64,000 nucleotides of DNA, from NCBI GenBank assembly GCA_964458035.1, contig CAYWFZ010000002.1, positions 484 to 64,483 on the forward strand, in the 5' to 3' direction. Made by a program: the position numbers and the translations under genes. Source of the DNA: an uncultured Muribaculaceae bacterium (lineage in GTDB: Bacteria > Bacillota_I > Bacilli_A > RF39 > UBA660). This document shows, in pieces, positions 32,527 to 41,598 of the stretch. The notes beneath the pieces are model-generated. The model was not told where the DNA came from. It saw nothing but the letters and a program-made list of their open reading frames with translations, and did not search any database. Numbering within the stretch: the first letter of the stretch is position 1; every line of letters begins with the position of its first letter.

Positions 32527-35500
32527 TTAATGATTATTATGTAAAGAAAGAGTTTTATATTCTAAATCTCTAGATAAAGTACTATTATGTTCTAGTCTTA
32601 GTTTAAGATAGCCTAAGACATTAATTAATTCATCCCACTCATCATCAGTTAACAAACTTGCATCAGTTACACCAAATATTTCTTCTATTTTTTTTACAGT
32701 TTTAGGTGGAATATCAGTTCCAACACTAGCTAAAATATTTCTAACATCTTCTCTACTTGCTGAATCAATTCTAAAATAATCCTTATACTTTTCTCTTATT
32801 AAATCATATGTAATAAACTTATTTGGTCGAACTCTTGCAAAGGGCCCTTTTCTTCTAATTTTGTCAAAATATCTACGATAATTTTTCTCACTTACAAGAC
32901 CAAATTCTTCATTATGTTTATAATAATATTCTAATACCTCTTCATAAGAAAATTCCTTAGCTTTCGTTATACCTTGTTTATACTTGAGTACAGAAACAGT
33001 AAACTCTCTTATTATTTCACTTACAGAAGAATCACTAAGTTCTGGATGATAATTCTTTACTATTTCACTCTGTGGTAACCTTTTTTCATAATAAAGGAAA
33101 CATAGTTCATAAGCTAAATCTTGATTACCATAGTATGGTATATCCGTATTTCCTGCATAACTCCAAAAATAATCAAAATCAATACCTGTTTTAATACCTT
33201 TCTGTAAGTCACTTAAGTGCATTCTTATTTTTTGCATTAATAGAGTAAATTGATGTGCTGAAAAGCCAAATTTCTTTTCGATCTTTGTTTGAGGTACCTT
33301 ATCTTTATACATCATCTTTAATATTTCACGATCTTCTAAAATAAAATATTTAAGATATGGTTTAATATCAATTTTATATATTACATCCCCTTTTATTTCA
33401 TTATTTAAATATTTCTTTATTGTAACAATACTTTTATATAATCTCTTTCTAGCAATTGGTTCTCTTATTTCATACTTTAAAGCAATATCTGAAATTTTTA
33501 AGAACTCTTCTCCATATAAACCATAAGCATCAATCACTATATTTTTATCTTCCTTACTTAATGGAAGCCTTTTATTTCTTAAAACACTTTCAAGTTCGCA
33601 TCTGTCAATAAAGTCAATCGCCGTCTTAAGTAAACCTATTTTATGGGCTGCTACATGTTCTTTAGCATGTCTAACATAAGAACCAACATTTCTGCTCACT
33701 CCAATTATTGGACCAATATCAATCGGATAATGTTTCTTACCTGTTTCATTATATGAATTCTTTATTCCATAATAAAGAGAAAGAATAAGTTTTTCCCTTT
33801 CAGTTAAGACATTTACTGAAGGGTGCTCATTTATAGCTTCTATAACATCATCTTTAGTTATTTCAACTTGTTCAATCGATAACTTATTAGCAAGATTATA
33901 AAGTCTTCTAACATAATTGCGAACTACTTCTAAATCAACTCCTGTAATCAAAGAAGTTTCATTCGTATTTCTTACTCTTATAAATACCTCCAAAACAGAT
34001 TTTACATCTTCACCATATTTGGCACTACTTAAAACACTTTTTAAAAACTCCTCAGAATAATTCTTTTGTGTACTTGTTATACCAAAGCGATAATAGTCCA
34101 TTACTGAGACTGCATATTTAACTAATTCAGCTACACGTCTAGGAGTAAAGTCTTCGTCATTCTCATACTTTAAAGAAATACTTTCATAAGTCATATCTTC
34201 AAGGAAGAACATTTTTGCAACACTTAAATGTGGTTCGCCTAAAGGTAAATTATCATCCATTAAAACTTCACGATAAATTTTCTTATCAAAGTAATATTGC
34301 CCAATTCCTAAATAAGTATTTATAGCAGTGTTTTTTGATCTTCTAAAATCTCTTTCTGTTATATCTTCATCTTCATTCAAATAAAGAGACATTTCTCTTA
34401 TCGTCATACGAGACGTAAACACTCCATAGTATAGATCAAGTAAATTAATTTCACGTTCCTCTAAAGTCTCTAAAAGTTCATCTCTAACTGATACATATTT
34501 TTCCTTTGTAAAATTATCATTTTTGTAATCCTCAACATTAAATAAAATCAAGAATAATTTATTGATAGCAGAACGATTAGGATTTACTTCTGATTCATCT
34601 ATACTTTTATCTTTTTTAAAAACATAATAATTCAAAAAATCCTTCTGTTTTTCTGTGAATAAATCTTGATTCTCTAAAAATATAGGATAGAGATGAGACA
34701 AGGATATGTCATGAACCCTATATCCATAAAGTGAATAATTCACATCTCTTTCAATATATTCTTTATTTTGAATATTTTTTCTTTGTGGGTATGCAACATC
34801 AGGTTGATAGCAATTGGGAATGCCATAAAACTTCTTTACAATACCCAATAAATAATCATTTACAGGCACATGATTTTCATCAAGTAGTTTAAGTACATCA
34901 TCAAGTGTCTTATCATTAAAGTACTCACGTATAATCTCTTTATAATCAAAAAACTCAGTAATATCAGAGTCTATTTCTAAATTATATATTTTATTTTTAT
35001 AATGTCCAAATAAATTATTTTTAAATAAATAAAAGTGTGGATCAGAATAGCTATCATGAATAAGCTTTTTTATTTTTTCAAAGCATGCCTCAACATATGA
35101 TTTATCTTCATCTATTTCTAATGCAACATAATCAGGATCGAACTCCATTTTACCAAGTAATATTTCATTTAAAATAAATTGATCTTTTTCCTTAAAATTA
35201 TCTTTTAAGAAAAAATACATTATATAGTTCTCTATTTGGCAAGGTTCTACTTTTATTTTATCGTAATTATAATTTTTTTTAACTTCATCTAGATATTCTT
35301 TTTTTAAATAACCATCATCAGTAAACATTTTCCTAACAGTACTTTTTATACTTCCTTCAACTTGACGTACTCTTTCTTTAGTAATACCTAAGTATTCACT
35401 CATTTCTTCTAGTGTTTTCGTTCTTTTATTTAATACACGATGATACAGTATTAAATATTCATAATCGGACAGTTTAATCTTTAACGTTTTTAAGATTTCT

Positions 35501-36177
35501 TCAACAACTATTTTATTAAGCAAATCATCAATAGAAGTATTTTCCCCTGTAATAAAATCTCCTAAAGTATCTTTATCTGCATCAGAGCTATCAACCGGAG
35601 CATCTAACCATGCAGCTTCAAATTTATAGTCTTCTTCTATCTTGCTTAAAGTAAGATCACTTATTTTAAGTATTCTACAAATTTCACTTCTAGATGGTAC
35701 TTCTTCTCCAGTTTTTTCATATTTATTCATAAATTTTTTATATCTTGTCATAGCCTCTTCAAGATACGCAGGTCTTCTTATAAGTCTTTGATTGTTATAA
35801 CGATAATAACTTATTTCTTTTTGTATTTGATATTCAGCATGAGTAGAAAAAGCAGTACCTCTATTAATATCGAAAGTTTCAACAGCTTTAATAAGACCAA
35901 TAATACCCGATTGTATATAATCAAGTTTCTCTTCTGCACGTAAGACATTCCCTAGCCCAAAAACTTTTGAAATTACCAAATTAATATTTTTATTAACTAT
36001 TAAATCTTTAATCTCGGCATTACCACTAAAATACTCCTGTAACATTTCATCATTTTCTTCACGAGTAGCAGTTTTATATCTTTTAATGATTCTTAAGAAA
36101 TCATTTAAACAACTATCTGATAAAAAATCATCATAATCAATATTTTGTACGTCTGAATTAAATTTATCCATAGACAT
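32527..36177 (-). CDS. Giant sigma-70 family protein: N-terminal sigma2-sigma3-sigma4 core plus a roughly 930-aa extension of repeated sigma4-like HTH modules
   Basis: 1216 aa. Region 2 is 'LVISKVFG...YIQSGIIGLIKAVETFDINRGTAFSTHAEYQIQKEI'. Region 4 is 'LSDYEYLILYHRV...TLEEMSEYLGITKERVRQVEGSIKSTVRKM'. Later segments repeat the pattern, e.g. 'LTEREKLILSLYYGI...' and 'LEEREINLLDLYYGV...TIREMSLYL'. Confidence 0.7.
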   Translation of the reverse strand: MSMDKFNSDVQNIDYDDFLSDSCLNDFLRIIKRYKTATREENDEMLQEYFSGNAEIKDLIVNKNINLVISKVFGLGNVLRAEEKLDYIQSGIIGLIKAVETFDINRGTAFSTHAEYQIQKEISYYRYNNQRLIRRPAYLEEAMTRYKKFMNKYEKTGEEVPSRSEICRILKISDLTLSKIEEDYKFEAAWLDAPVDSSDADKDTLGDFITGENTSIDDLLNKIVVEEILKTLKIKLSDYEYLILYHRVLNKRTKTLEEMSEYLGITKERVRQVEGSIKSTVRKMFTDDGYLKKEYLDEVKKNYNYDKIKVEPCQIENYIMYFFLKDNFKEKDQFILNEILLGKMEFDPDYVALEIDEDKSYVEACFEKIKKLIHDSYSDPHFYLFKNNLFGHYKNKIYNLEIDSDITEFFDYKEIIREYFNDKTLDDVLKLLDENHVPVNDYLLGIVKKFYGIPNCYQPDVAYPQRKNIQNKEYIERDVNYSLYGYRVHDISLSHLYPIFLENQDLFTEKQKDFLNYYVFKKDKSIDESEVNPNRSAINKLFLILFNVEDYKNDNFTKEKYVSVRDELLETLEEREINLLDLYYGVFTSRMTIREMSLYLNEDEDITERDFRRSKNTAINTYLGIGQYYFDKKIYREVLMDDNLPLGEPHLSVAKMFFLEDMTYESISLKYENDEDFTPRRVAELVKYAVSVMDYYRFGITSTQKNYSEEFLKSVLSSAKYGEDVKSVLEVFIRVRNTNETSLITGVDLEVVRNYVRRLYNLANKLSIEQVEITKDDVIEAINEHPSVNVLTEREKLILSLYYGIKNSYNETGKKHYPIDIGPIIGVSRNVGSYVRHAKEHVAAHKIGLLKTAIDFIDRCELESVLRNKRLPLSKEDKNIVIDAYGLYGEEFLKISDIALKYEIREPIARKRLYKSIVTIKKYLNNEIKGDVIYKIDIKPYLKYFILEDREILKMMYKDKVPQTKIEKKFGFSAHQFTLLMQKIRMHLSDLQKGIKTGIDFDYFWSYAGNTDIPYYGNQDLAYELCFLYYEKRLPQSEIVKNYHPELSDSSVSEIIREFTVSVLKYKQGITKAKEFSYEEVLEYYYKHNEEFGLVSEKNYRRYFDKIRRKGPFARVRPNKFITYDLIREKYKDYFRIDSASREDVRNILASVGTDIPPKTVKKIEEIFGVTDASLLTDDEWDELINVLGYLKLRLEHNSTLSRDLEYKTLSLHNNH

Positions 36178-36232: not shown

Positions 36233-36264
36233 GAAAAAAGAATTAACATCTATAATGTTAATTC
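36233..36264 (-). terminator. Rho-independent terminator closing the 39028-36250 operon
   Basis: Perfect 10-bp stem GAATTAACAT (36240-36249) / ATGTTAATTC (36255-36264) spanning the stop codon. On the minus strand it is followed by a U-run (plus-strand A-run 36234-36239). Confidence 0.7.
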
Positions 36265-37599
36265 CTTTTTCTTTATACATTCATGATTTATTTTACCTGT
36301 ACCTAAATAGTTTAAATCAACTCCTAAAGTTGTTTCTAACCAGTTTAGATATTCCCTAACATATCTATCAATATCGACATTCTCATATTCCCCAGTCTTA
36401 TGAGCAAAATCAAGATTTAAATGTTGAAAAAAATTTAAATATATTCCATCAGGATCATTCATACGTACATTTTGTTTTAATTTTCTAATATCTAAATCAA
36501 ATATTTTTCTTTCCATTCTTGTAACTGAAGTCATCTCTGATAAATCTGTTAAATATGGATCTTCTAAACCACTTAAATCAATTACATCAGAAATATACTT
36601 GCGTATTCCCATTCTTTTATTAATAAGTCTCTCCATTTCAAGAGCATCAACAACTGTTACATCTGACATAGACACATTAGTATAATTTTCTCCAAATATT
36701 TGTAACTTATCCCGATTAGTAGTTTGATTTAATAACTTAATCTTTATTTCATCATTTATTTCTTCATAATCAGAAAATTGGTCTACTGTTGGATAAACAC
36801 CAAATTTAGATGCAAAATTTATATGACTCCAAGTTAACTTATCGGCAGTTCCATAACCACCTGTATAAATATACTCACCATCTCTAGTAATATCATTAAT
36901 TCTAATAGGAAATGGCCTTATAACCATATCAGCATAAAGAAGTCTTCTTGGAGAAACACCTGCCTCTTGAAGCATATTAGAAACTGAAATATTTCTTGAA
37001 GTCACATTAGGATGTTCTCCACTAAAATTTAATGATAAATCACATCCTTGAGCTCCCTCGAACAAAACTGTTTCATCTTTACTATCTAAATGTTTATATA
37101 ATAAATCTAACCAATCTGCATTTTTTAAAACTACCGCATTTTTATACCCTTTAAAAAATTCAAGTTCAGGATTTCTTATTATCTTATCTTGGTTACATGC
37201 AGCACACCCATGATAAGTTGAACCACTTTTAATAATTCTCTTTTCCCGCATTTTATGCTCTTCAGTTACTAAAGGAACTAGTTCATGAACATATATCTTG
37301 CGGTTACCTAAGAAGTGTTCATGTTCATCATATTCACGCTTAAATTCTTCCATATCAATTACTGAACTAGGACCAATAAATAATTCAACGTCTCTATTTA
37401 CTGAAGCAACGGGAATGTTTCTAAAAAGGTGAGATACTCCATATTCATCGACAAATGTATGCCCTGCATTAGGCATCGAGTTTGTAAGACTTGCTCCAAC
37501 CGAATATATGGGATTAGTAGCAATCTCACCACACACCTTCGCCTTACCACAAGACCCCGCTTCTCCATCAAAAACACATATTATATTATTATTAACCAT
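36250..37599 (-). CDS. Divergent adenylosuccinate synthetase (PurA)-like enzyme
   Basis: Track ORF trimmed to the ATG at 37599, which has a GGGAGGG RBS. 'NAGHT' and 'FEGAQG' are kept in the PurA order. The other PurA motifs are altered: 'GEAGSCGKAK' (vs GDEGKGK), 'GSTYHGCAAC' (vs GTTGRGIGP), 'SVTRMERK' (vs TTGRRRR), 'HLNLD' and 'GTGK'. Confidence 0.65.
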   Translation of the reverse strand: MVNNNIICVFDGEAGSCGKAKVCGEIATNPIYSVGASLTNSMPNAGHTFVDEYGVSHLFRNIPVASVNRDVELFIGPSSVIDMEEFKREYDEHEHFLGNRKIYVHELVPLVTEEHKMREKRIIKSGSTYHGCAACNQDKIIRNPELEFFKGYKNAVVLKNADWLDLLYKHLDSKDETVLFEGAQGCDLSLNFSGEHPNVTSRNISVSNMLQEAGVSPRRLLYADMVIRPFPIRINDITRDGEYIYTGGYGTADKLTWSHINFASKFGVYPTVDQFSDYEEINDEIKIKLLNQTTNRDKLQIFGENYTNVSMSDVTVVDALEMERLINKRMGIRKYISDVIDLSGLEDPYLTDLSEMTSVTRMERKIFDLDIRKLKQNVRMNDPDGIYLNFFQHLNLDFAHKTGEYENVDIDRYVREYLNWLETTLGVDLNYLGTGKINHECIKKKELTL

Positions 37600-37614
37600 A
37601 AACCCTCCCAAGAT

Positions 37615-40477: not shown

Positions 40478-40510
40478 CAAATAAAAGAGAATAAATCTCA
40501 CTTTATTCTC
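40478..40510 (-). terminator. Rho-independent terminator after the 40498-41598 gene
   Basis: GAGAATAAA (40487-40495) / TTTATTCTC (40502-40510) overlapping the gene end. U-run on the minus strand. Confidence 0.65.
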
Positions 40511-41598
40511 ATATTTAGCAATTTTTTTACTCTTTTTTTAAATTTTACTCTTGCAGAAGTAACCTTATAAGTTCTAAGTTCTTTCATAAATACATCATAT
40601 AGTGAATTAAACTCTTGTAATATACCTGCATATTCTTCTTCTGTAATAAGTTCTTTTTTCAAATAGTCGTATAGTCTTTTATTAACAAAATCTTTTAAAA
40701 ATTTAGATATTTTAATAAAACTTTTAGTATCAATCCCATGTCCTTCAACATATTGTTTATAAGCCTTATCAATTTTTGTTAGCAACTCCAAATAAGCACT
40801 TTTATACTCATACTTATCAAATTCATCCATTACAGCAATTGGATTTCTAATACTTTCAGAAATAAATATATTATTTGGTAAGACAGAAGATTTTTTACCT
40901 ATCCTACTTGCTTCAAGTAAACCTTTATTATGTAAATAATTCTTATCCATCCAGTTATCACTTGATAAACTAAATGCTGAAACAAACATTTGAAAGAATG
41001 TAAGTAAATCATCTGTAGGAGAAAGAAAGTATTTATCATCATTATGATCATAATATCTAAATAAATCATCTATTATAAAGTCTGGCTCATTTCTCTTTTT
41101 TACAACAGCTACAGCTAGTAATTGTGCTAAACTATCTGCCATATAATACCCTGGTGTATATTCATGTCCATCTGTATCACATTTAAAAAAACCTGAATAA
41201 TTAGAAACATCATATATATCTGCATCTAAAAAGGCATTTCTTTTAAAATAAGAGCCATATACGTTATTAAAAATAACCATTAAAGCATGCCACAATTCAT
41301 GTGAGAAAATAACTTCTATATATTTTATATCTCCATTATATTCACTAGTTCCATACATTTTGATATCTGTTAAACCATCACTTGAAAACCTTGTATGTCC
41401 ATGAACTTTCTCATTTAAATCTTCATCTTTATAATTCCAATCTCGTATTTCTAGTGACTTTATTCTATCTAACACTTTTTCATTAAATAATTCTGTAATC
41501 ATTCTATCAGAATCTCCAAATAGCATACTGATATTATCGCCTAATATTTGTTGAAAAAGCGTATAATCTTTATTAGTCGAAACATTTATAGTATCCAT
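40498..41598 (-). CDS. Putative zinc metallopeptidase-like protein (HExxH)
   Basis: 366 aa. 'VIFSHELWHALMV'. No signal peptide. Confidence 0.4.
   Translation of the reverse strand: MDTINVSTNKDYTLFQQILGDNISMLFGDSDRMITELFNEKVLDRIKSLEIRDWNYKDEDLNEKVHGHTRFSSDGLTDIKMYGTSEYNGDIKYIEVIFSHELWHALMVIFNNVYGSYFKRNAFLDADIYDVSNYSGFFKCDTDGHEYTPGYYMADSLAQLLAVAVVKKRNEPDFIIDDLFRYYDHNDDKYFLSPTDDLLTFFQMFVSAFSLSSDNWMDKNYLHNKGLLEASRIGKKSSVLPNNIFISESIRNPIAVMDEFDKYEYKSAYLELLTKIDKAYKQYVEGHGIDTKSFIKISKFLKDFVNKRLYDYLKKELITEEEYAGILQEFNSLYDVFMKELRTYKVTSARVKFKKRVKKLLNMRIK

Follow-up and report, generated by a model that had tools for sequence, protein, structure and literature searches.

A PurZ-like enzyme with an inserted subdomain encoded in the chromosomes of uncultured gut Bacilli

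To our knowledge, PurZ is the committed enzyme of the sole natural pathway known to replace a canonical DNA base, adenine (A), by 2-aminoadenine (Z). Reports of natural Z-containing DNA (dZ-DNA) are confined to phages (PMC13128860), and the literature treats PurZ as a phage invention with a few archaeal relatives. What a PurZ-like enzyme does in a bacterial chromosome is the question raised by a 64,000-nucleotide (nt) stretch of DNA from an uncultured bacterium (GenBank assembly GCA_964458035.1, contig CAYWFZ010000002.1, positions 484 to 64,483; hereafter referred to as the window), which encodes such a protein, here called PurX, on its minus strand.

An earlier reading of this DNA, made from its letters alone (the sequence-only reading), had described the gene as a PurA-like enzyme with altered substrate loops and a large insertion, and had argued that these changes point to a substrate other than that of the housekeeping adenylosuccinate synthetase PurA. 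Here we report a computational analysis of PurX, its homologs and its genomic setting, which shows that the PurX family keeps an intact and strongly constrained active site of the PurZ ligase type. On the basis of sequence comparisons we propose, with somewhat better than even confidence, that PurX is a chromosomally encoded, cellular member of the PurZ (Ser-type) branch that works like phage PurZ.

Gene and superfamily membership

A mechanical listing of open reading frames (ORFs) gave PurX as 36250..37611 (−), a frame of 453 residues with a TTG start. Because the Shine–Dalgarno-like GGGAGGG precedes an ATG at 37599 and the closest homologs start with MVNNN, the 449-residue form beginning at this ATG is the likely coding sequence (CDS), in agreement with the span given in the sequence-only reading, and the gene is real. 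Residue numbers below follow the 453-residue frame and are lower by four in the ATG form. A terminator-like hairpin over the stop codon suggests that the operon ends with PurX (Table 1).

PurX is a member of the adenylosuccinate-synthetase superfamily. It matches Pfam PF00709 (Adenylsucc_synt) with 69.8 bits (E = 2.4e-19), above the gathering cut-off of 27, and PHROG 1211, the PurZ family, with E = 6.8e-37, and PurZ also ranked first when the PDB was searched with the PurX sequence. The best NCBIfam model was NF038379 ('succino-amino-deoxyadenylate synthase PurZ'), at 133.7 bits and thus short of its curated cut-off of 300. The scores against the PurA models likewise fell below their cut-offs, with 117.3 bits for archaeal PurA (PRK04293, cut-off 368), 76.9 bits for bacterial PurA (TIGR00184, cut-off 395.6) and 53.5 bits for canonical PurA (PRK01117, cut-off 402). 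The one PurX family member for which we have an NCBI name is called 'hypothetical protein'.

A PurZ-type active site

Czernecki et al. listed the residues of the crystallised phage S-2L PurZ that contact deoxyguanosine monophosphate (dGMP), aspartate and deoxyadenosine triphosphate (dATP) (PMC8342488). We mapped these contacts onto PurX through a HMMER alignment to 7odx_A, in which the chain index is the S-2L number plus 6, and counted the corresponding residues over 121 members of the PurX family. The catalytic Asp13 of PurA (in GDEGKGK) is kept in 99% of 251 PurA-clade sequences, whereas Ser takes its place in 100% of 147 phage PurZ-group sequences (PMC12884076). PurX has Ser20 at this position, as do all 121 family members, and Ser also occupies it in 142 of 146 sequences of a wider alignment consisting of full-length best matches, mostly the nearest library representatives, together with references.

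The remaining contacts follow the same pattern. The dGMP base pocket of S-2L PurZ (G22, S23, N49, A50, T132 and Q190) corresponds to G19, S20, N48, A49, T132 and Q188 of PurX, each present in 119–121 of the 121 members, and the phosphate binders (G130, S131, R146′, T205 and R240) correspond to G130, S131, R146, T204 and R237, all without exception (121/121). V241 of S-2L, which is placed to clash with the ribose 2′-OH (PMC8342488), is represented by I238 (121/121). At the tip of the aspartate loop, S-2L T273–T276 (TTVT) is matched by T361, T/S362, V363 and T364; position 362 is T in 94 members and S in 27, and the other three residues are each found in 121/121. R280, which lies beside Ser23 in S-2L PurZ, corresponds to R368, again in every member. 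The adenine 6-amino group of (d)ATP is bound in S-2L PurZ by N305, F306 and Q308 (PMC8342488), for which PurX has N393 and F394 (each 121/121) and Q396 (115/121, with E in the remaining six). In a 43-sequence alignment, K23, H51 and R146 are invariant (H51 and R146 also in 121/121), and so are L259, W261 and N265 of a motif common to phage PurZ.

Asp333 of Escherichia coli PurA, the Asp of the (T/N)KxD motif that specifies the guanine of the GTP donor, aligns with Gln396 of PurX (L-T-K-L-D in PurA, L-N-F-F-Q in PurX). The sequence-only reading had assigned this Asp to an 'NLD' at residues 399–401, which is a misalignment: position 399 is variable (G49 S24 D23 E13 N8), and D401 is found in 77/121 members. 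Because the guanine-specifying Asp is not retained, the phosphate donor of PurX is predicted to be an adenine nucleotide rather than guanosine triphosphate (GTP). The other motifs named in that reading are present as described, namely NAGHT, FEGAQG (184–189), the P-loop GEAGSCGKAK with Ser20 for Asp13, GSTYHGCAAC (130–139) and SVTRMERK (362–369).

A comparison with canonical PurA (EC 6.3.4.4; E. coli 1ADE; TIGR00184) revealed a shared P-loop Lys, NAGHT, GxT loop, EGAQG and dimer Arg (R143 in PurA, R146 in PurX). By contrast, Asp13 is replaced by Ser, TKLD by LNFFQ and TTGRRRR by T[T/S]VT[K/R]MER[K/R], with an identity of 24%. Together with scores below all PurA cut-offs, the Ser at Asp13 and the Gln at the guanine-specifying Asp bear out the earlier view that PurX is not a divergent housekeeping PurA. 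The loops of PurX are PurZ forms (GSTGKG, GSTxxG, TTVTKxxRR and LNFxQ/N). The loop changes from which a substrate different from that of PurA had been deduced are thus real, but they are not unique to PurX, and because they are essentially those of PurZ, the substrates of PurZ (dGMP, aspartate and ATP or dATP) are the simplest prediction.

Phage PurZ (EC 6.3.4.25; S-2L 7ODX; phiVC8 6FM1 and 6TNH; NF038379; PHROG 1211) accordingly resembles PurX in its fold, in the Ser for the catalytic Asp, and in the full dGMP pocket, the TTVT tip, R280, the adenine-binding N/F/Q triad and the ELTW motif. It differs in that PurX has a core identity to it of only about 27–29%, an additional helical insertion of about 90 residues and C-terminal segment of about 14 residues, Glu367 in the aspartate loop and no equivalent of Pro336, and is encoded in a bacterial chromosome without datZ, mazZ or dpoZ.

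Family and phylogeny

The PurX family is large. The protein database holds 529 PurX relatives, of which the best 120 are full-length (447–488 residues) with identities of 52–96%, and a HMMER scan of 1.84 billion cluster representatives with PurX gave 1,422 matches; the family comprises more than 500 clusters. Taken with the PF00709 and PHROG 1211 matches, the 529 relatives put the signal well beyond chance. Phage PurZs score 68–70 bits with the PurX query, below all 150 listed representatives (at least 88 bits). Outside the insertion, the mean frequency of the most common residue is 0.84.

For the phylogeny we used the distance-based neighbour-joining method on 50 taxa and 324 alignment columns, with 100 bootstraps and E. 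coli PurA as the root; Asp-type archaeal PurA is not among the taxa. The core of the PurX family received a bootstrap support of 94 and the insertion-bearing forms one of 62, and the family forms a clade with the short bacterial relatives P0123 and P0125–P0127 at a support of 100. In 85 of 100 replicates this clade joins PurZ and leaves PurZ0 outside, which is suggestive of a PurX family nested in the Ser-type (PurZ) radiation. The closest named phage relative in the tree is 'PurA' of Bacillus phage vB_BpsS-140. The alignment to PF00709 and PurZ and the tree that the sequence-only reading had called for thus place PurX outside canonical PurA and with PurZ, as far as a neighbour-joining tree can tell. 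Its suggestion that the changes in PurX are of the kind that separates PurZ from PurA agrees with the conserved S-2L contacts, with best matches to PurZ and short archaeal PurA, and with the Ser-type placement.

A published PurZ phylogeny contains 147 phage and four archaeal sequences (PMC12884076). Its sampling of no more than two PurA homologs from each prokaryotic phylum explains the absence of the bacterial Ser-type clade. The short Ser-type bacterial relatives P0123, P0125, P0126 and P0129 are uncharacterised proteins of 361–393 residues with 36–48% identity to PurX. They share with it the motifs GSCGKGK, RPFPIRISN, LSW..IN, TTVTK..RR.F and LNF.Q.L; unlike PurX, they do not contain residues 273–350 or 282–335, and they have K or P for E367. 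Within the short bacterial Ser-type clade, Asp occupies the catalytic position in P0127 alone (372 residues; GDCGKGK). With NADH for NAGH and a disrupted aspartate loop as well, this copy may have degenerated or taken on a new function.

PurZ0 (Gordonia phage Archimedes 7VF6; also in Arthrobacter and Microbacterium phages) has a Ser-type P-loop and the short architecture in common with PurX, and its fold matches with a target-normalised template-modelling score (TM-score) of 0.78, but it has LSMAD or ITMID where PurX has LNFFQ, and PurZ0 phages carry dutZ and dmtZ, which are absent near PurX. The short archaeal PurA (Pyrococcus horikoshii PH0438, 2D7U and 5K7X; PRK04293) is an equal fold match (target-normalised TM-score 0.84–0.87) and has the same deletions relative to long PurA, whereas its sequence match ends at residue 239, before the PurZ-type loop.

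These comparisons bear on an alternative in which PurX is the housekeeping adenylosuccinate synthetase after all, a divergent short archaeal-type PurA with an insertion that makes adenosine monophosphate from inosine monophosphate in a reduced genome without the canonical enzyme. PurX is indeed chromosomal, its conservation outside the insertion speaks for strong purifying selection, its carriers have small genomes of about 1.5 Mb, and it has every catalytic element generic to the superfamily. Moreover, a search of the window and of 1.4 Mb of sequence flanking PurX in relatives found neither canonical purA nor purB; about one chance match to purA would be expected in that amount of sequence, and the result says nothing about the whole genomes. 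We nevertheless consider this alternative quite improbable, since Asp13 is kept in nearly all of the PurA clade (PMC12884076) but is Ser in every PurX family member, Asp333 has become Gln, the scores lie far below the bacterial (77 against 395 bits) and archaeal (117 against 368 bits) cut-offs, and PurX is nested in the Ser-type clade. In addition, its presence varies among close relatives that share the gene upstream of it (8 of 64 loci, see below), unlike that of an essential gene.

Inserted subdomain and predicted structure

The insertion of about 90 residues noticed in the sequence-only reading is real and specific to the family. Against phiVC8 PurZ, an Acinetobacter-phage PurZ, PurZ0 and E. 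coli PurA, the alignment gap spans residues 268/269–357/358, and against the nearest short bacterial relatives it spans residues 273–350. The first 19 or so residues that had been assigned to the insertion (YTGGYGTADKLTWSH...), however, do not belong to it, as they align with the PurZ-specific loop (phiVC8 ...GGHYPDQEELTWEQ). No Pfam domain was detected in the inserted region, in which Y273, Q304, E325, E327, R328, K332, Y339 and D356 are invariant.

An AlphaFold2 model of PurX built on 43 family sequences reached a mean predicted local distance difference test score (pLDDT) of 86.9 and a predicted TM-score of 0.87. In this model, the insertion forms a four-helix subdomain (residues 261–270, starting just before the insertion, 287–296, 299–312 and 320–333) with a pLDDT of about 87–96 over the block. 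A Foldseek search against the PDB matched 43 PurA and PurZ chains with a probability of 1.0. The top folds were phiVC8 PurZ (6tnh), P. horikoshii PurA (5k7x and 2d7u), S-2L PurZ (7odx) and PurZ0 (7vf6), with target-normalised TM-scores of 0.78–0.87, whereas long PurAs reached only 0.59–0.69. From this ranking, the core of PurX corresponds to the 'short' PurA/PurZ architecture with one new subdomain added. Phage PurZ-type proteins were also the top fold matches in a search of viral models. A further viral protein of the PurA/PurZ fold, A0A8S5LEH3 in BFVD (Myoviridae sp. ctBDS4), is close to PurX in length (452 residues), has a TM-score of 0.67 and 18% identity, and may carry an independent insertion.

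The subdomain lies just before the aspartate loop, in which position 367 is Glu in the insertion-bearing homologs P0121, P0124 and P0128 and K, P and K in the short P0123, P0125 and P0126, respectively. This co-occurrence is suggestive of a joint function for Glu367 and the insertion. Three features are unique to the PurX family: the insertion, the invariant Glu367 and the lost stacking residue Pro336.

Predicted reaction

Given these residues, PurX most likely ligates a guanine nucleotide, probably dGMP, to aspartate with the use of ATP or dATP. In such a reaction, the PurX dimer would bind a guanine mononucleotide, probably 2′-deoxy-GMP, and phosphorylate its O6 with the γ-phosphate of ATP or dATP, not of GTP. 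The amino group of L-aspartate would then displace the phosphate to yield N6-succino-2-amino-(deoxy)adenylate, which an adenylosuccinate lyase could turn into the 2-aminoadenine nucleotide (d)ZMP. The insertion, with its invariant E325, E327, R328 and K332, might act as a lid, regulatory or interface element that modulates closure of the aspartate loop.

Several observations weigh against a function like that of phage PurZ. The score of 133.7 bits lies below the curated cut-off of NF038379, so that PurX is no PurZ equivalog by the NCBI standard. Glu367, present in 121/121 members where S-2L PurZ has Pro279 and other PurZs have V or K, adjoins the aspartate site. The position of S-2L Pro336, which stacks on the adenine, is variable in the family (A69 P25 S9 K7), a partial deviation of the donor site, and S-2L R244 is without a counterpart (I241 in PurX). 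The insertion, Glu367 and the loss of Pro336 could alter the amine substrate or the regulation of the enzyme. As for the 2′-OH gate, sequence comparison gives Ile238 in all 121 members and a loop at least as long as the A242–W250 loop of S-2L PurZ, with no R244 counterpart; specificity for the deoxy form, which rests on one Val-to-Ile position and a PurZ-like loop, is therefore likely but not secure. MazZ supplies dGMP to phage PurZ, and a Ppx/GppA-like protein encoded next to PurX in other loci was considered as an analogous source of (d)GMP; it was rejected because PurX was found in only 8 of 64 loci when the search was reversed.

Some of these points lead to an alternative in which PurX is a PurZ-derived ligase with a changed substrate: it would take GMP or a different 2-amino-6-oxopurine nucleotide, or else replace aspartate by another amine, with Glu367 and the insertion reshaping the amine site and the enzyme serving in salvage or base exchange with the glycosylase-fold proteins encoded beside it. 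The sole invariant changes specific to the family do gather around the aspartate loop (E367, and the insertion with its four invariant charged residues), Glu at position 367 goes with the insertion among the homologs, the neighbouring protein c4 is closest to the nucleotide N-glycosylase DUF2419 and less close to DNA repair enzymes, and genes of the uracil-DNA glycosylase (UDG) fold recur beside PurX in unrelated contexts. We regard this alternative as fairly unlikely, however, because the TTVT tip and R368, whose counterparts in PurZ contact aspartate and Ser23, are invariant, the residue at the 2′ gate is even bulkier (Ile), and c4 is not dedicated to PurX.

Genomic setting

The enzyme proposed here to work like phage PurZ is encoded in a cellular genome. 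The window is bacterial chromosome with a G+C content of 23–31%, and Pfam and PHROG sweeps over 58 ORFs revealed ABC transporters, a lactate dehydrogenase (LDH), CotJ/CotJB with a Mn-catalase, a P-type cation ATPase and two-component systems, with no phage structural or replication genes around PurX. A megablast search of 15 kb of the window against 50,697 phage genomes gave no match, and a scan of IMG/VR (2.9 million viral contigs) with the family alignment returned 64 pattern matches and no PurX relative. A search of the window, and of 90 related loci up to 10 kb from PurX, found no homolog of DatZ, MazZ/DUF550 or DpoZ; its only matches were a weak one of PolA type in locus L042, which we take to be the polymerase of the cell itself, and a Dut-like one in L036. 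A tRNA search of the window found none.

We searched for further PurX loci in one genome per GTDB species and found 111, of which the best 80 were retrieved; all of these 80 come from metagenome-assembled genomes (MAGs) of uncultured gut 'Bacilli', 'Tenericutes', 'Mycoplasmatota' or 'Firmicutes', and some of the PurX-carrying MAGs bear implausible 'Muribaculaceae' labels. The carriers include Ca. Onthousia, Ca. Ventrenecus and a closed chromosome of 1.52 Mb (OZ006970.1), and the flanks in relatives include metK, prfB, pflB and murC/ddl. Among the short Ser-type relatives, P0123 and P0129 also lie in cellular contexts, and the contig of P0125 is uninformative.

The possibility that PurX is the PurZ of a Z-genome phage, integrated in the chromosome as part of a prophage or mobile element, draws on the described PurZ-group proteins, all of which are from phages bar four archaeal ones (PMC12884076), and on the 'PurA' of phage vB_BpsS-140 as the closest named relative. 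The cellular genes, the lack of any phage-genome match or IMG/VR member and the absence of datZ, mazZ and dpoZ, together with chromosomal synteny (ABC transporter, two-component system and ldh) across relatives down to 55% identity, effectively refute it, and we rejected the idea that the window derives from a phage. PurX is an accessory gene in uncultured low-GC gut Bacilli, outside any phage Z-genome cassette.

Across the window (1–64000), most genes are on the minus strand and the GC skew is mostly negative. The window also holds small genes of a 'house-cleaning' type (two NUDIX, two HAD, two ASCH, DUF1848 and a non-specific endonuclease), and in locus L001 PurX lies in a comparable array (NUDIX, NT5C, dUTPase_2, AAA_18 kinase and NADAR).

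Neighbouring genes

PurX stands last in a co-oriented, tightly spaced cluster, rich in genes for glycosylase-fold proteins, in the order c15, c42, c3, c8, c9, c4, c13 and PurX, with gaps of 35–54 nt in the c15–c9 part (Table 1). This order is kept in L004–L014, L090 and L183–L187, among relatives down to 55% PurX identity, and persists without c8–c9 in L187 and with a fragmented c13 in L183–L186; much of this conservation may be plain synteny among related species. Single members of the cluster recur near PurX in distant loci, with c13 adjoining it in L091, c4 at most two genes away in L032 and L060, and c3 directly downstream in L063 and L075. Two divergent UDG-superfamily paralogs, c13 and c3, thus stand in one cluster. 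The former has both a GQDWGP motif resembling that of family 1 and an HPAAQ motif resembling that of family 4, and in the mouse-gut relatives L183–L186 it is broken into fragments of 48–82 residues beside an intact PurX.

The c4 protein has no match in Pfam and none by sequence in the PDB. Its AlphaFold2 model (pLDDT 87.9) has the HhH-GPD glycosylase fold and is closest in Foldseek to the queuine-salvage (queuosine-5′-monophosphate) nucleotide glycosylase DUF2419 (E = 1e-4), followed by EndoIII, OGG and MutY, and its APDTHV motif aligns with AVDTHI of EndoIII; a profile comparison with EndoIII (hhalign) gave a probability of 1%, and the fold assignment comes from AlphaFold2 and Foldseek only. 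As judged from this model, c4 represents an unannotated, widespread family with a predicted glycosylase fold; its 3,432 homologs come from MAGs of Bacilli and Erysipelotrichales, with identities of about 70% in the best 120. Because this family is much larger than that of PurX (3,432 against 529 matches), c4 is no dedicated partner of PurX. In PurZ0 phages, PurZ0 is paired with the deoxynucleoside monophosphate N-glycosidase/transferase DmtZ, and a functional parallel between c4 and DmtZ is conceivable.

A different neighbour, absent from the window, is a Ppx/GppA-family gene encoding about 300 residues. In 35 of 90 loci, whose flanks otherwise differ, it precedes PurX at a distance of about 20 nt; all 35 belong to one PurX subclade. 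When the search was reversed and started from this gene, PurX lay downstream in 8 of 64 evaluable metagenome loci and unrelated genes lay there in the rest. The linkage is therefore positional, and PurX is an accessory gene in a variable spot. The Ppx/GppA-family protein (L018–L091 and L105–L182) is highly conserved and has NMGGKTTE for the usual DxGGGSxE motif. Upstream of P0128, the most divergent insertion-bearing homolog (39% identity), a 200-residue HD protein (L103, 488–1090) was tried as a DatZ analogue and rejected, its Pfam HD match (E = 0.004) being below the cut-off and similarity to phiVC8 DatZ being absent; this neighbour was seen once, on a contig of 2.8 kb.

Between PurX and the ABC transporter, the window encodes a giant sigma-70-like protein of 1,216 residues (32527–36177, −). 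Its N-terminal 300 or so residues match sigma regions 2–4, PHROG 351 and the anti-phage sigma factor MzaA of the MZA system (PADLOC, 3.8e-17; NCBIfam) and are followed by an extension of about 900 residues. The gene occupies this place in the window only and is missing from all syntenic relatives.

These surroundings bear on a further alternative, namely that PurX is an anti-phage or stress effector which, on a signal, depletes dGMP/dGTP and (d)ATP or produces Z nucleotides in great excess, with the insertion as a regulatory or sensor module. It would fit the patchy presence of PurX in a variable chromosomal spot, its position in the window beside the MzaA-like protein and glycosylase-fold genes, and the dATPase activity of S-2L PurZ itself (PMC8342488). 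We find it highly doubtful. In a PADLOC-DB 2.0 scan of PurX and eight neighbours, the only PurX match was at noise level (a restriction endonuclease (REase) model, E = 0.0064), the association with the sigma-like gene is incidental given its absence from the syntenic relatives, the clade of the window keeps PurX stably beside housekeeping-type genes, and the insertion contains no recognisable sensor-type domain.

Table 1 Features of PurX and its gene cluster, in window coordinates
Feature	Position	Strand	Details and basis
PurX (PurZ-like enzyme) CDS, 449 residues from ATG	36250..37599	−	ORF, Shine–Dalgarno, homolog starts, PF00709, PHROG 1211, NCBIfam PurZ
Shine–Dalgarno-like GGGAGGG	37603..37609	−	3 nt 5′ of the PurX ATG; read from sequence
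P-loop GEAGSCGKAK, residues 16–25	37537..37566	−	Ser20 at the PurA catalytic Asp13 position, equal to S-2L Ser23
NAGHT, residues 48–52	37456..37470	−	Catalytic His and base/phosphate contacts, equal to S-2L N49–T53; 119–121/121; roles from PMC8342488
SGSTYHGC, residues 129–136	37204..37227	−	Nucleotide 5′-phosphate/base loop, equal to S-2L G130-S131-T132; G130, S131 and T132 each 121/121
Arg146, partner of the phosphate/base loop	37174-37176	−	121/121
EGAQG, residues 185–189	37045..37059	−	Gln188 equal to S-2L Gln190 and PurA Gln224; Gln 121/121
RPFPIRI, residues 232–238	36898..36918	−	Arg237 equal to S-2L R240, Ile238 to V241; each 121/121
LTWSHIN, residues 259–265	36817..36837	−	Common to phage PurZ (phiVC8 ELTWEQL), absent from PurA; alignments
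Family-specific insertion of about 90 residues (268–357)	36541..36810	−	Predicted four-helix subdomain just before the aspartate loop; alignment gaps, AlphaFold2
Aspartate loop SEMTSVTRMERKIF, residues 358–371	36499..36540	−	Equal to the S-2L Y272–L278 loop (tip TTVT) and R280; alignment to 7odx and 6fm1
LNFFQ, residues 392–396	36424..36438	−	At the PurA TKLD position; N393/F394/Q396 equal to S-2L N305/F306/Q308; alignment and counts
Terminator-like hairpin over the PurX stop codon	36233..36271	−	18 pairs and T-rich tail; consensus scan, pattern match only
c13, family-4-type UDG superfamily, 222 residues	37615..38283	−	Stop 15 nt before the PurX ATG; PF03167 E 3.6e-12; Sulfolobus UDG 4zbx E 8.5e-9
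c4, predicted HhH-GPD glycosylase fold, 251 residues	38273..39028	−	Overlaps the c13 start by 11 nt; AlphaFold2 and Foldseek
c9, 459 residues	39083-40462	−	ORF; weak Peptidase_MA_2 match, E 0.03
c8, 366 residues, HELWH (HExxH) motif	40498-41598	−	ORF
c3, UDG-like, 218 residues	41644-42300	−	PF03167 E 8e-7
c42, 177 residues	42336-42869	−	ORF
c15, 867 residues	42912-45515	−	ORF

Implications

The chemistry of PurZ is already known, and the surprise of PurX is its location in bacterial chromosomes. What is new is a large, cellular, chromosomal and unannotated clade, its inserted subdomain and the absence of the phage helper genes; a literature search found no description of a bacterial PurZ clade. 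Candidate cellular purposes of a PurX that works like phage PurZ are Z in DNA, nucleotide salvage or base exchange, and manipulation of the nucleotide pool in defence. In a bolder and, in our view, unlikely version, a lineage of gut Bacilli would make Z deoxynucleotides with a chromosomal PurZ-type enzyme and place Z in its own DNA, partially or conditionally, while the co-operonic glycosylases of the UDG and HhH-GPD folds would handle the base chemistry. If Z metabolism of this cellular kind were true, its carrier would be the first cellular organism with it.

In current annotation pipelines such proteins appear as 'hypothetical' or might be mistaken for 'adenylosuccinate synthetase', which would distort metabolic reconstructions of reduced-genome gut bacteria. 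An intact PurZ site in chromosomes without the helper genes implies one of three options: these cells make Z nucleotides for their own use, in DNA, salvage or defence; they are the evolutionary reservoir from which phage PurZ came; or the PurZ active site supports a related, unknown reaction that is tuned by the new subdomain.

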